A stretch of DNA of 28,904 nt from a virus. Taxonomy: Duplodnaviria > Caudoviricetes. The notes under the pieces were generated by a model. It did not search any database. It had not been told where the DNA came from and was given only the letters and a program-made list of their open reading frames with translations. Of the stretch, positions 3,986 to 15,540 are shown one piece after another. The position numbers were made by a program, and so were the translations under genes. The DNA lies in IMG/VR virus record IMGVR_UViG_3300017911_000991, positions 1 to 28,904 of that record. One strand, written 5' to 3'. Each line of letters begins with the position of its first letter. The first letter of the stretch is position 1.

Positions 3986-4434
3986 AGACTAGTGAAGAAG
4001 GCGTGGCACTTATCCGACACTTTGAAGGCTGCCGTCTTGAAGCGTATCTATGCCCTGCTGCTGTATGGACTATTGGTTACGGCCACACTCTTGATGTTAG
4101 AGAGGGCGACGTAATTGATCAGGAGGCCGCAGAGGCGCTTCTTATCGAGGACCTAGAGGAGTTTGAGGGCTATGTTACCTCCTTGGTTGAGATCGAACTC
4201 AAGCAGCATCAATTTGACGCTCTCGTGGCGTGGACCTTTAACTTGGGCCCAGCAAACCTTAAAGAGAGCACGATGCTCAATAGGATCAACTATGGTCCGC
4301 TTAGCGACGTTCCTTTCCAATTGCAGCGATGGAATAGAGCGGGCGGGAAAGTCCTTGATGGACTAGTTAAGAGACGTAAGGCTGAAGCTCTCCTATGGGA
4401 CGGCGGGGACTGGAGGGAATATGAGCCTCATTAA
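3982..4434 (+). CDS. Endolysin, GH24 phage lysozyme
   Basis: E-X8-C-X5-T triad (FEGCRLEAYLCPAAVWTIGYGHT), FDALVAWTFNLG and GLVKRRKAE motifs. Confidence 0.93.
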   Translation: MKTSEEGVALIRHFEGCRLEAYLCPAAVWTIGYGHTLDVREGDVIDQEAAEALLIEDLEEFEGYVTSLVEIELKQHQFDALVAWTFNLGPANLKESTMLNRINYGPLSDVPFQLQRWNRAGGKVLDGLVKRRKAEALLWDGGDWREYEPH

Positions 4435-5245: not shown

Positions 5246-5263
5246 GGGGGGCCGAAGCCCCCC
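5246..5263. terminator. GC-rich hairpin at the end of the late operon
   Basis: GGGGGGC-CGAA-GCCCCCC, which reads as a c(UUCG)g tetraloop on the minus strand. No good U-tract on either strand. Confidence 0.55.
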
Positions 5264-5369
5264 TGCTACGCTAGCAACGGGCGGAGAAACTAGCGCAGCG
5301 CTTATATCCTATCAGAATACCTACCCCCTAGTTATTCCAAATAGTTCTATTCCTAGTAGTATAAAAATA

Positions 5370-5397
5370 TTGACTAGCCCAATCTCTGTGGCATCAT
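5370..5397 (+). promoter_or_regulatory. Sigma70-like promoter for the recombination operon
   Basis: TTGACT-N16-CATCAT with extended TG and an AT-rich upstream element. Confidence 0.6.
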
Positions 5398-5441
5398 GTC
5401 GCAGTCAGTTGATTTACTGATGCCTATAGAGAGAGCAAGCT

Positions 5442-9612: not shown

Positions 9613-10003
9613 GCGAGACGCGGCGGACCACTACTTTTCGTTGTGCGTAAGAGCTAAAGCCAACTTCACCTGTGAGTTCTGCGGCAAGGAGTTCCCAGGG
9701 CCAGATCAAGGGCTACATTGCGCTCACATTGTAGGCCGCAGGAACGCCAGCACCCGCTGGTCCTTAGATAACGCGGTATCCCTCTGCTACTACCACCATC
9801 GCTACTTCACGGAGAACCCTCTCGACTTTATCCAGTGGCTAGCCTCGTATCTAGGGGAAGGCCACATGGAAAGGCTCATGGAGAAGAAGAACGAGGTCTA
9901 TAGGGTGCGAGTTCCTGAGAAAAAGCTCATTGCAAAGCACTACAGGGAGCAGTGGAAGGAGTGGGGTACAGGGGAGTCCATCGACTTTCTATCGTGGAAT
10001 TAA
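9599..10003 (+). CDS. ninG: NinG/Rap-like HNH endonuclease (resolvase)
   Basis: DHYFSLCVR, CEFCG, HCAHIVGRR and RWSLDNAVSLCYYHH motifs. Confidence 0.75.
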   Translation: MAGIKRDAADHYFSLCVRAKANFTCEFCGKEFPGPDQGLHCAHIVGRRNASTRWSLDNAVSLCYYHHRYFTENPLDFIQWLASYLGEGHMERLMEKKNEVYRVRVPEKKLIAKHYREQWKEWGTGESIDFLSWN

Positions 10004-10006
10004 GGC

Positions 10007-10032
10007 ATAAAAAAGGGCCCCCGGAGGGGCCC
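10007..10032 (-). terminator. Intrinsic terminator on the minus strand
   Basis: Minus strand reads GGGCCCC-TCCG-GGGGCCC-TTTTTTAT (UNCG loop plus U6). Confidence 0.85.
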
Positions 10033-10192
10033 ATATCACGGGAGAGAGAGGGACCGTGATGCGAAGCAGGCAGCTTCAAAGAAAATATACGCCTTGATAG
10101 AGAGAGGAGCAAGGGGTATAAAGTAAGCGTCGGTGGGGTTACCAGCCCCTAAAGAGCCGACGAGCAAGAGATAGGAATCAGTCACCCGACGC
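10008..10192 (-). ncRNA. Putative ~185-nt structured sRNA with CU-rich anti-RBS loops
   Basis: Bounded by a minus-strand promoter and terminator, contains no credible ORF. Stems at 10035-10060, 10086-10120 and 10128-10162. Confidence 0.7.
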
Positions 10193-10198
10193 ACGCGT

Positions 10199-10227
10199 AT
10201 TTTAGCGTCCAAGGTTGTCCATATCAA
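10199..10227 (-). promoter_or_regulatory. Sigma70-like promoter driving the sRNA
   Basis: Minus strand TTGATA (10227-10222), N17, TAAAAT (10204-10199). Confidence 0.75.
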
Positions 10228-10581
10228 TCCATGCTCGTCCTCTACCGTCCGGTACTGCTCACCGTAAGTCGAGCTGTCGCATCGCGCAGCCAGCAGTAAA
10301 GCGAGACGCTCAGGGACAACCTCTGAGGACGGGACAAACAGCGTATAGGTGCCATCAAATGATGGGGGGCGGTGTTGCGAGCCGCAGGTAAATCGTTGCT
10401 GATGACCGTTCCTGAGCTGGAAATATAAAGACATCGTGATTGGGGCACCAACAGTCCTCAAAAGACCTTCTATTGCCAAAAGCCTTTATTCCAAAAATAC
10501 CCTTTCTTATATCTAAAGGTTCTTGGACGAAATCAGGGCTTTTCCATAGGTTGTAGGTCCAACTTGAAAGCGGAGGGACAA

Positions 10582-10893
10582 ATGCCACGGTCAGCAAAAG
10601 CGTTAAGCCCAAAGGAGGTAGATGCGCTGACATGCAATACCCACCCTGAAACAGGAGAGGTAGTAGCTACATCGCACGCGGTTGGTGGTGTTCCGGGCCT
10701 TTACCTGCACATCAAGCCAGAGGGCGGACGTTCTTGGGTTTATCGAGCCTCCTTCAGAGGTAGGCGCATAAAGCGTGGGTTAGGGAGCTTCTCTTCTATT
10801 GGCCTCATAGCGGCACGCAAGGCAGCAAGCAGGATAGCGGAGGGGATGCTAGAGAACATTGACCCGATGGAGCAAAAGCGGGCACACCGATAA
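10582..10893 (+). CDS. Stand-alone integrase arm-type DNA-binding domain (P4-integrase N-terminus-like)
   Basis: GGVPGLYLHIKPEGGRSWVYR...GLGSFSSIGLIAAR...IDP. GGAGG RBS, ends at 103 aa with no catalytic domain. Confidence 0.8.
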   Translation: MPRSAKALSPKEVDALTCNTHPETGEVVATSHAVGGVPGLYLHIKPEGGRSWVYRASFRGRRIKRGLGSFSSIGLIAARKAASRIAEGMLENIDPMEQKRAHR

Positions 10894-10911: not shown

Positions 10912-12429
10912 ATGCAGTTAAGACCACATCAGGAGAGAGCCGTAGAGATGCTGAGGGATTCTCTACGGAAAGGGAACAAGCGACCCATCCTCGCAGCCCC
11001 ATGTTCCTTCGGTAAGACGATCACGGCAGCACACCTTCTGGCTCAAGCAGCTAAGAAAGGGAAGCGCGGGTTTTTCTTTTGCGACAGGGTAAAGCTCGTT
11101 CAGCAGGCTCTAGCGTCTTTCGACAGCCAGGGCCTAGAGGTTGGGGTTATTCAGTCAACGCACGAGAGGACTAATCATGAGGCGCCTATCCAGATCGCCT
11201 CGATTCAGACTGTAGCCCGTAGATCAAATATCCCAGAGTTTGATTTTGCGGTGGTGGATGAATGCCACGTCCACTACAAGAGCCTCCAGAAGATCATGGA
11301 TCGCTACACCGCTGTCCCGTTTATCGGGCTGTCCGCAACCCCTTACGCGAAGAGCTTGGGTAAAGCATACGATGATCTAATCGTGCCGATCACTCCAGCG
11401 GAGCTTTTGGAGCAGGGTTACCTTTGCCCCGTGGATTACTTTGGAGGGCGCTCCATTGATATTCAGGGGGTAGCTGGTAGGGCTCTCCAGACAGGAGGGT
11501 CAGACTTTGACCCGAAGGAGATAGCTGCTAGGACAGAGAAAGACATCTACCTAACCGGCGACATCATCAAAAACTGGTTCAAGCACGCCCAAGGCCGCCA
11601 GACCATCGCTTTTAGTCCTTCGATCCGTCACAGCCGTGGCCTCGTAGAGCAATTCAATGCTGCTGGGGTTCCTGCGGTACACATTGACGGCTATATGGAT
11701 GACGAAGAGCGGCAGATCATCTACAAGGCTCATGACGATGGCGAGTTCCTTGTTTTGTCCTGCTCTCGATTGCTTAACGTAGGGTATGACGCGCCTAAGG
11801 TGTCCTGCCTGATTGATTGCTTCCCAACGCGGAGCGTCATCTCGTACGTTCAGAGAGCGGGCAGGGTGATGAGAACGTCTGAGGGTAAGGAGCGAGCAAT
11901 CTACCTCGACCACGCTGGCAACGTAGCCCGCCATGGGTTCGCGGAGCACATCGTGCCCGATTCACTAGACCGGGGAGAGGTTTACTTTAGCGAAAAGAAG
12001 CAGGCTAAGAAGGAGAAAGAAACGAGTCCTAAAGATTGCCCGCAGTGCTACCGCATCTTTACCGGCATCCGTTGCGCCTGTGGCTACACCATCCCGATGA
12101 CGGCCAGGATCAATACGGACGGGAAAGACCTAGACCGGATCACGGCTGATTACACGAAGCAACTAATTGACCGAAAGCGATGGCTTGATGAGCTGTCACT
12201 GATTGCGGCCACTAAGAACCATAAGCACGGATGGGCTGCTCATGTATTCAAGAGCAAGTTTAAGGAGTGGCCCTCGCCTAGTGAGAACCGCTGGTTAAAG
12301 CAGAGATACGCCGAATTACTGCAAAGCCCTCAGTCATTAGACAACGTGTCAAAGGACGTACGGGGATTCCTCAAGCATCTTAAGATCAAAGAGGCGTACC
12401 GAGGCTTTAGACAAAATACGACAGCATGA
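10912..12429 (+). CDS. Superfamily II DExH helicase (RadD/YejH-like) with C-terminal zinc finger
   Basis: LRPHQ, APCSFGKT, DECH, SATP, QRAGRVMR, CPQC...CACG. Confidence 0.92.
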   Translation: MQLRPHQERAVEMLRDSLRKGNKRPILAAPCSFGKTITAAHLLAQAAKKGKRGFFFCDRVKLVQQALASFDSQGLEVGVIQSTHERTNHEAPIQIASIQTVARRSNIPEFDFAVVDECHVHYKSLQKIMDRYTAVPFIGLSATPYAKSLGKAYDDLIVPITPAELLEQGYLCPVDYFGGRSIDIQGVAGRALQTGGSDFDPKEIAARTEKDIYLTGDIIKNWFKHAQGRQTIAFSPSIRHSRGLVEQFNAAGVPAVHIDGYMDDEERQIIYKAHDDGEFLVLSCSRLLNVGYDAPKVSCLIDCFPTRSVISYVQRAGRVMRTSEGKERAIYLDHAGNVARHGFAEHIVPDSLDRGEVYFSEKKQAKKEKETSPKDCPQCYRIFTGIRCACGYTIPMTARINTDGKDLDRITADYTKQLIDRKRWLDELSLIAATKNHKHGWAAHVFKSKFKEWPSPSENRWLKQRYAELLQSPQSLDNVSKDVRGFLKHLKIKEAYRGFRQNTTA

Positions 12430-12754: not shown

Positions 12755-12869
12755 GGTCTTTGCCCAGTTGAATGATTGGGAGTACCTGAAGGGGGTTGAG
12801 AAGACCGCCTTTAGGCAAGGGGTCAGGAAGATAGCTAAAGCATGGGGGAATAGAGCAAATGATAGATGA
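12720..12869 (+). CDS. Hypothetical protein (may start at 12582)
   Basis: MLTERQAAALLKV..., overlaps the start of the next gene. Confidence 0.45.
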   Translation: MLTERQAAALLKVFAQLNDWEYLKGVEKTAFRQGVRKIAKAWGNRANDR

Positions 12870-13470
12870 CCTATTAGACCGGCTGGATAAGGTCCGCCAG
12901 ACCGGGGAGGGGCAATATGTGGCCTGTTGCCCTGTACACGGCGACAGGAACCCCTCTATGGGGCTCCGTGAGGTGATTGGGGACGATGGCTATAGGAAGG
13001 TACTGGTTCACTGCTTCGCCTGTCACGCGGGCGCACAGGAGGTCACAGGGGCATTGGGGCTTCCCATGTCTGTCCTATTTGAGAAGCCGCTAGACCGGGG
13101 TGGGGTAGGCACAAGCTCAAGCACAGGCCGAGGTGGGTCCGTTTGGGACGAATTCGACCGCCAATTGATGCCACTAGACCGGGGTAGGGTCAAAACAGGC
13201 ACAGGCCGAGGAGGGGTCAACGCAGGCACAGGCCGAGGAGGGGTCCAGCTAGACCGGGGTGGTCGTTCGATGCCACTAGACCGGGGACCATTGCCACTAG
13301 ACCGGGGAGGGGTCAGATTGACCCGAAAACAGCGCCAGGAGGTCGAATTGGATCGGCTCGTGCTCGCTGGGGCAGGGGAGGCGGAAAGGCAAGGGAAGCG
13401 CCTCTCGTATAAGGACTGGCAGCGGGTAAAACTGGCGCGGGCGAGACTGGAAACACTGGGGGATGAATAA
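12859..13470 (+). CDS. Primase-type zinc-binding domain protein without TOPRIM, with a repeat insertion
   Basis: ACCPVHGDRNPS...VHCFACH zinc finger and central LDRGG/TGRGG repeats. Confidence 0.75.
   Translation: MIDDLLDRLDKVRQTGEGQYVACCPVHGDRNPSMGLREVIGDDGYRKVLVHCFACHAGAQEVTGALGLPMSVLFEKPLDRGGVGTSSSTGRGGSVWDEFDRQLMPLDRGRVKTGTGRGGVNAGTGRGGVQLDRGGRSMPLDRGPLPLDRGGVRLTRKQRQEVELDRLVLAGAGEAERQGKRLSYKDWQRVKLARARLETLGDE
13090..13314 (+). repeat. G-rich direct-repeat cluster
   Basis: CTAGACCGGGG at 13090, 13174, 13249, 13276 and 13297. CACAGGCCGAGG at 13122, 13200 and 13227. Confidence 0.9.
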
Positions 13471-13673: not shown

Positions 13674-13717
13674 GTACTCATGCCCTGACGGACAGGGCCC
13701 AGAGAGAGAGGAAGACT

Positions 13718-14006: not shown

Positions 14007-14053
14007 AGAACCATAGCCGGGACAAACCCGGCCCAACGAGAGAGAGAAAAACA

Positions 14054-14713: not shown

Positions 14714-14743
14714 GGGGAACCTTTAGAGAGAGAGGTAGGATAA

Positions 14744-15279: not shown

Positions 15280-15339
15280 GACAACCCCAGGGCCGTGGAC
15301 AGAGCCTCACAGAGAGACAGACAGAGGGAGAGAGACACC

Positions 15340-15540
15340 ATGGAACACTTCCACCGACTCCTCGCCTTTCAGGATTACAGAGAGACAGGGAGAGCCAGAG
15401 AGAACCAGCCCGACTCCTACTATGACGCCTTTGCTGAGGCCTATGCTCTGGGAGAACAAAACGCATATAATCGCCCCATCCATTCCGATGGGGACTCGAT
15501 CCAATGCAAGAGAAGCGCCCAAGAGGACGACCGCCGCTAG
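15340..15540 (+). CDS. Hypothetical protein
   Basis: ATG at 15340 after a GGGAGAGAGA leader. Confidence 0.5.
   Translation: MEHFHRLLAFQDYRETGRARENQPDSYYDAFAEAYALGEQNAYNRPIHSDGDSIQCKRSAQEDDRR

Follow-up and report, generated by a model that had tools for sequence, protein, structure and literature searches.

The genes of the linear phage record analysed here (the window: 28,904 nt, or 28.9 kb, 76% complete) lie on the plus strand, and the question raised by positions 10008-10227 is what a transcription unit with its own promoter and terminator does on the minus strand at this site. The unit is flanked by ninG on one side and by an integrase arm-domain fragment and a superfamily 2 helicase gene (10912-12429, plus strand) on the other. 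A previous sequence-only reading had taken it for a trans-acting small RNA, a master repressor whose loops would pair with the (AG)n leaders of five dispersed early genes, and every segment quoted in support was present where it had been placed. The unit begins with a sigma70-type promoter (TTGATA-17-TAAAAT, 10199-10227, minus strand), for which the promoter scan predicted a start near 10192, and ends with an intrinsic terminator (10009-10032, minus strand) that has a UNCG loop (UCCG; stem-loop 10032-10015), six U residues and, as it is kept among relatives, one compensatory pair. These two elements, already recognised from the letters, were the top matches in the scans of the window. Folding and an alignment of relatives predict an antisense RNA of ~184 nt (10009-10192, minus strand), composed in order of an RNA I-like 5' domain, hairpin 1, a short hairpin, hairpin 2 and the terminator. 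The 220-nt minus strand was more stable than 199 of 200 shuffled sequences (z = -2.97), with both hairpin loops open as originally described; the unpaired probability was 1.0 for loop 2, 0.98 for loop 1 and 0.62 for a third segment that had been proposed to pair with a leader.

No established identity was found for this RNA. The absence of a credible reading frame was borne out, as the 147-aa minus frame (10036-10479) has no PHROG match and the corresponding stop-free stretches of relatives vary from 59 to 176 aa, and a tRNA or tmRNA was also rejected. Rfam contained no family above the gathering threshold for the window or for the related loci L382, L369 and L010; weak matches to Atu_C8 and suhB, far below their gathering thresholds, stem from the terminator and the loop. 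The C4 model of Rfam had no match at E <= 10 in 9950-10600, and no icd/ant gene lies alongside. One of the four listed sequencing runs is on record as RNA, and all four are available as contigs without strand. The RNA run, which also contains coding pieces, comprises one contig spanning the minus-RNA region of the relative L002 (1182-1383), reaching ~12 nt past the predicted start, and another (1441-1671) spanning the pseudoknotted core described below, both strandless and from one study; the gap between them is bridged in the DNA-like runs. Overall, we consider it highly probable that the minus RNA is made. The opposite view, that the hairpins are active in DNA form or else sponge up a protein as part of plus-strand RNA reading through from ninG, gains something from the terminator scan of the window, which found no plus-strand terminator after ninG, and from plasmid motifs of similar size that can act as single-stranded DNA (PMC5737381, as far as the accessible part of that paper describes them). 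We regard it as very improbable, because the minus promoter is kept although its spacer diverges, the U-tract exists on the minus side only, and the G-U pairs of hairpin 2 fall on the minus strand.

Comparison with other viruses indicates that the minus-strand feature is real and conserved in relatives. A search with ninG recovered nine viral loci, eight with the unit and the ninth with a diverged form, and pattern scans gave 30 distinct copies of the 5' domain including that of the window, most matches of some of these scans being chance. Two of the relatives carry inserts with a palindrome between ninG and the terminator (L002 1138-1180 and L005 7686-7750), the former also with the -35 motif of early promoters.

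The same comparison revealed that the unit, correctly seen as a conserved minus-strand entity, is only half of a larger module, whose second promoter had been missed. This sigma70-type promoter (TTGATA-17-TATAAA, 10094-10122, plus strand) faces the minus promoter and is kept in relatives. A score of 8 or more out of 12 consensus positions was reached by the plus promoter in 39 and by the minus promoter in 46 of the 55 distinct copies whose flanks are complete, compared with 12.5% of shuffled flanks in each case. Nearly always the spacer of both promoters is 17 nt and their predicted starts fall at the ends of a 66-nt overlap domain (10127-10192, both strands) common to the two RNAs, which forms a near-invariant frame in the 30 distinct copies. 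Within it, an inner 4-bp hairpin carries a 7-nt loop (10139-10145) that occurs in variants among these copies and is likely the kissing or specificity loop. Since both promoters face each other and are conserved, the minus RNA would be cis-antisense to a plus RNA of ~340 nt, with predicted perfect complementarity to its first 66 nt. This 66-nt stretch is the best-kept part of the minus RNA. Distant phages have a 75-81-nt counterpart of the overlap domain without the loop arm, in which a run of A left of the domain would stop the minus RNA at ~80 nt. Control of the plus RNA in cis by the minus RNA is, in our judgement, likely.

The predicted plus RNA (10127-10470), resembling RNA II, consists of the overlap domain, a linker and a pseudoknotted core. 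Linker segments (10232-10263) are complementary to the overlap domain, for instance 10232-10239 with 10159-10166, and offer an alternative fold. In 45 of 52 copies the true linker paired better than its shuffled versions (p <= 0.05), eight further loci having no domain recognised by pattern, and this suggests two mutually exclusive folds of the plus RNA. A general switch in which the freed linker invades the core was rejected, as it holds in 23 of 52 copies only. The core itself (10273-10461, plus strand) is defined by covariation. For 35 proposed pairs in eight helices, aligned over 44 of 54 collected copies (ten were dropped for long insertions, truncation or near-duplication), 86.6% of the cells were paired against 33-50% in slid controls, and 17 of the 35 pairs had changed on both sides, which none of 500 shuffles equalled; misalignment under-counts two of the helices. 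The pair with the highest mutual information belongs to a pseudoknot, the G-U pairs are those of the plus strand, and invariant unpaired stretches are combined with several crossing helices. A hammerhead or group I assignment was rejected on the grounds that Rfam gave no match and the helix order differs from the consensus of those ribozymes.

The core block was found in 64 viral stretches, at least one of which is a chance match, and its hosts include siphovirus-like genomes as well as one complete podovirus (G007). No blastn match placed the module in isolated phages or plasmids. The core profile found nothing in the regions of three isolate phages, nor did blastn with three versions of the module in a plasmid collection that excludes pB1067. 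In Pseudomonas phage PS-1 (L426), 610 bp without annotation separate cro from the helicase (2381-2995) and have no core match. Many of the phages have a start codon within 15-30 nt after the core. The module is not the leader of one gene, because it lies before many mutually unrelated genes and beside the helicase promoter in either orientation, being inverted relative to the helicase in the group of relatives termed C. In this group (G003, G004, L015, L023, L071) the block from sak to ninG is inverted together with the module with respect to lysin, helicase and late genes. The slot directly 3' of the core is variable. In many loci it often contains small putative nuclease-like or methylase genes whose sequences are unrelated, and in the window it is filled by a stand-alone integrase arm-type DNA-binding domain (10582-10893; Pfam Arm-DNA-bind_3) that is missing from 18 of 18 relatives tested and whose leader pairs with loop 2. 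The antisense unit is retained in L003 and in L210-type copies, in L003 without the core; at L003 8905-9240 an unrelated non-coding stretch of ~330 nt with hairpins takes the place of the core and is perhaps a second class of RNA.

What the plus RNA does might be read from the replication genes nearby. The primase gene of the window (12859-13470, plus strand) is reduced, by domain search, to a CHC2 zinc finger without the catalytic domain, and the same holds for relatives: in 22 of 22 module-bearing loci it encodes a zinc finger of 123-210 aa without Toprim, or in 24 of 24 tested when the window and L370 are counted, although these phages are related and hence not independent. All three isolates with the same helicase family have a full Toprim primase and no core, and two of them have a gene annotated as RepL just upstream, confirmed by Pfam in one. 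A tblastn search with the isolate primases and RepL gave 0 of 63 catalytic matches, at a sensitivity that missed the window's own zinc finger too, and for this reason was left out of account. In the complete podovirus, which has the core, no recognised helicase, primase, polymerase or initiator was found among 49 frames; many of these frames belong to no family, so that a small initiator is possible, and its cumulative skew has no switch at the module. The zinc-finger gene of the window also contains five iteron-like copies of CTAGACCGGGG (13085-13315), which may mark an origin bound by a protein or have arisen by expansion in frame. From a primase that lacks its catalytic domain and a podovirus without a recognised replication gene, we infer that the module might be an RNA I/RNA II-like, RNA-primed origin. 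We give about even odds to priming by the plus RNA; the antisense unit of L003, present without the core, and the small unassigned proteins that may be initiators count against it.

A different role for the plus RNA would leave the antisense RNA as a two-part molecule and make it the off-switch of a ribozyme, a ligand sensor, an antiterminator or a protein scaffold. The invariant unpaired stretches and crossing helices would suit a catalytic or binding RNA, similarity to ColE1 is absent, and in many phages a start codon lies close by. We nevertheless find this alternative unlikely: the downstream genes are mutually unrelated, the module flips relative to the helicase, and neither the loss of primase catalysis nor the genome devoid of recognised replication genes would be explained.

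The terminator-side part of the minus RNA appears to have another partner. Hairpin 2 (10035-10060, minus strand) presents a 12-nt putative anti-leader loop (10042-10053), and among 16 copies four unrelated stem sequences surround the CU-rich loop. By eye, seven of the 16 have G-U pairs of the minus strand, and one terminal mismatch favours the other strand; RNAalifold on the full minus RNA missed this hairpin, as its stems do not align. Counting of (AG)4 tracts in the window gave seven on the plus strand and two on the minus strand, with 2.05-2.5 expected per strand and at most six in 2 x 60 Markov simulations. Two of the seven lie inside the unit and the other five all just before an ATG. Four of the five genes follow a TTGAC-type promoter. 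The predicted targets, all on the plus strand, are the leaders of sak (5426-5441; first gene after the promoter 5370-5397), of an 83-aa gene (13701-13717; first after TTGACA 13645/CATTCT 13668), of a 121-aa gene (14038-14053; first after TTGACA 13978/CATTCT 14001), of a 120-aa gene (14725-14743; after TTGACA 14684) and of a 66-aa gene starting at 15340 (15326-15339).

Covariation between loop and leader offers a test across relatives, one that the sequence-only reading had called for. The loops fall into four groups, which in plus-strand letters are (AG)n for A, AGAGGAGG for B, GAGGAGAC for C and GGAGGGA for D. With 14 recombinase leaders and 19 loops, the mean longest match within the own group was 8.4, 8.6, 9.0 and 7.0 nt for A to D and 3.8-7.2 nt between groups, and the own-group assignment ranked 1 of 24 whether length or energy was used, a rank equivalent to p of about 0.04. 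The leaders after the second early (post-primase) promoter show the same group pattern. Because loop types follow the sak/exonuclease/helicase clades, this covariation amounts to about three independent changes; in group C the adjacent core is mosaic and the loop is not. By energy the groups are less distinct: leaders of group B pair similarly with loops of groups A (-16.9), B (-17.6) and C (-17.2), and those of group D favour B loops (-17.4) over their own (-13.4). In group D (L369, L374, L384, L387), the minus RNA lies just left of the core, is 76-91 nt long and overlaps the plus RNA over a short stretch only; it has two UCCCUCC loops and an unrelated 5' part. Where the loop arm is missing, 12 leaders were recovered from 29 loci, and 9 of them are of the plain GGAG kind. 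A seed exposed in loop 2 and covarying with the target leaders is thus found by comparison, in few independent events, and matches what had been proposed for this loop.

The remaining proposed seeds did not survive the comparison, since loop 1 is the -35/-10 spacer of the plus promoter, where (AG)n persists in no more than a part of the relatives, and the third segment differs from one relative to another. Exclusivity of the tag was also overstated. In the window, the five (AG)n leaders ranked 2, 3, 5, 8 and 14 of 44 for pairing with loop 2, in a ranking where seven of the 44 positions are off the true start, and two late leaders, those of the gene at 4421 and of portal, outranked two of the five. 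Other genes with G-rich leaders show equally good pairing; the (AG)n tag itself is not shared by late genes. We judge repression of early leaders by loop 2 to be reasonably probable, somewhat less so than the control in cis.

Two simpler accounts accept one half of this RNA each. The minus RNA might act as cis-antisense only, with the purine boxes covarying through a common phage protein that recognises them as DNA operators or RNA sites, or through clade-wise drift in the style of ribosome-binding sites. One box does lie in the spacer of the plus promoter, where an operator is expected, the loop arm is missing in distant relatives, box types follow clades, and the matches are of 8-10 nt and low complexity. 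A protein or drift would fit less well with leader boxes at Shine-Dalgarno distance, with a module box held in a hairpin whose stem was replaced four times and has minus-strand G-U pairs, with group C, in which the plus strand at the box is not downstream of any plus gene, and with a tag not shared by late genes; we think this account improbable. The other account is the earlier model by itself, a master repressor that acts on early genes in trans alone, in which the 5' domain would be a stabilising scaffold. Its core idea stands in so far as loop 2 tracks the leaders of promoter-first early genes, and both this covariation and the cuckoo-like two-loop form of group D speak for it. The purely trans character does not stand, given that the 5' 66 nt are cis-antisense: a scaffold would hardly be the best-conserved domain and remain where the loop arm is missing, nor does it account for the facing promoter and the covarying complements in the plus-strand linker. 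On its own, we consider that model quite unlikely.

We therefore come back to the reading that we prefer, with a probability of roughly 0.45, in which the minus unit encodes a two-part antisense RNA combining control of an origin with a block of early leaders. Sequence and comparison supply the facing promoters, the overlap, the terminator, the two plus-RNA folds, the covarying core, the missing catalytic domain of primase and the loop-leader covariation. In the mechanism that we envisage, the two RNAs would first touch, after the manner of ColE1, through the 7-nt loop that varies among phages, and the first 66 nt of the minus RNA would pair with the start of the plus RNA and keep it from its primer-competent fold. 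When allowed, this fold would likely prime phage DNA replication, possibly as an R-loop primer used by host enzymes. The terminator-side loop would likely block translation of promoter-first early genes by pairing with their leaders. A stable antisense RNA might build up with genome number, and origin and early genes could then both be informed of the copy number by one molecule.

Several known systems resemble parts of this arrangement. In ColE1, a small counter-transcribed RNA is complementary to the 5' end of a long RNA that has two alternative folds and contains the promoter of the small RNA, and no initiator protein is involved (PMC11012335, in the portion available). The phage unit shares the predicted counter-transcribed 5' antisense, with facing promoters across the 55 copies, the alternative folds of the 5' part of the plus RNA (the 45 of 52 copies above) and, in the distant copy L010, the 13-nt hairpin GAGCTACCAACTC of ColE1. 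It differs in belonging to a phage rather than a plasmid, in a long RNA of ~340 nt as opposed to 555, in the extra anti-leader arm of the small RNA and in priming being a prediction; the core profile had no match in the ColE1 origin region (nhmmer --max). The MRB plasmids of Vibrionaceae, such as pB1067, are marine and Rep-less and have the same layout as the phage module, an RNA I of ~70 nt opposite an RNA II of 250-500 nt, according to the accessible text of PMC3035462. There, RNA I has two stem-loops in ~68 nt, ends within RNA II and derives its specificity from the loop, whereas the phage minus RNA is predicted to have 184 nt and a branched 5' domain, with the ~80-nt form in distant phages. 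The origins of the extrachromosomal prophages RedRock, Alma and LadyBird need a non-coding RNA and no RepA (PMC7157519). The available part of that paper places them beside parABS in temperate actinophages and describes no antisense partner; no partition genes were recognised here.

For the loop arm, the closest likeness is to cuckoo RNAs, whose hairpins combine very variable stems with an anti-Shine-Dalgarno loop (PMC4615179, from the part accessible), and to anti-Shine-Dalgarno RNAs of the AbcR/MmgR type; group D with its two UCCCUCC loops comes nearest. The alphaproteobacterial loops, as far as these sources go, are invariant (CCUCCUCCC) on 2-4 hairpins, whereas the phage has (CU)n or other variants with one conserved loop, which changes along with the leaders of the phage itself and is joined to a domain of cis-antisense type. 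P22 Sar, P1 c4, VP882 VpdS and PLE SviR control phage genes by base pairing, SviR in trans with several targets, and in the portions of PMC12197685 and bioRxiv 2022.04.08.487710 that were available none is described as an origin-linked antisense RNA and repressor of several leaders at once. The phage unit would work like an RNA I/RNA II pair plus a cuckoo-like arm and is a member of neither family. The literature search returned no description of the module, and no antisense RNA of copy control that in addition reaches a set of early mRNAs by way of leader tags evolving with it, although supplements of large catalogues may list the core. The accessible parts of PMC5737381, PMC10690425, PMC12197685 and bioRxiv 10.64898/2026.10.21.760802 do not describe it, the supplements of the last possibly listing the core; four supplements of PMC10690425 had no motif match, and its alignment archives may include the core.

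The plus-RNA core adds an apparently new family of heavily pseudoknotted RNA, present in marine phages of unrelated types. It also suggests a possible answer to how DNA synthesis starts in small phages without recognisable replication genes. A bolder and rather doubtful generalisation is that widespread marine sipho- and podoviruses have replaced initiator and primase catalysis by a pseudoknotted primer RNA, and that the clade of the window has fused an anti-leader arm to its copy-control RNA. If it were true, a single RNA would cap genome number and silence the early regulon, and could hold a carrier state free of integrase and repressor, with immunity groups defined by the loop. The module comprises 460 bp, and its loop-leader alleles could serve as natural, partly orthogonal repressor sets.

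The host was sought by a pattern scan of genome contigs, in which 0 of 95 matches passed the homology filter and no host or prophage emerged, and through terminase homologues, from which no host name was obtained. Two further features of the window were noted. Between the lysis module and the sak promoter lies a GC-rich hairpin without a U-tract (5246-5263). The motif TTATTCCAAA occurs exactly twice in the window, at 5332-5341 and 10486-10495, each time upstream of an early promoter, and in group C it is also found beside the helicase promoter.
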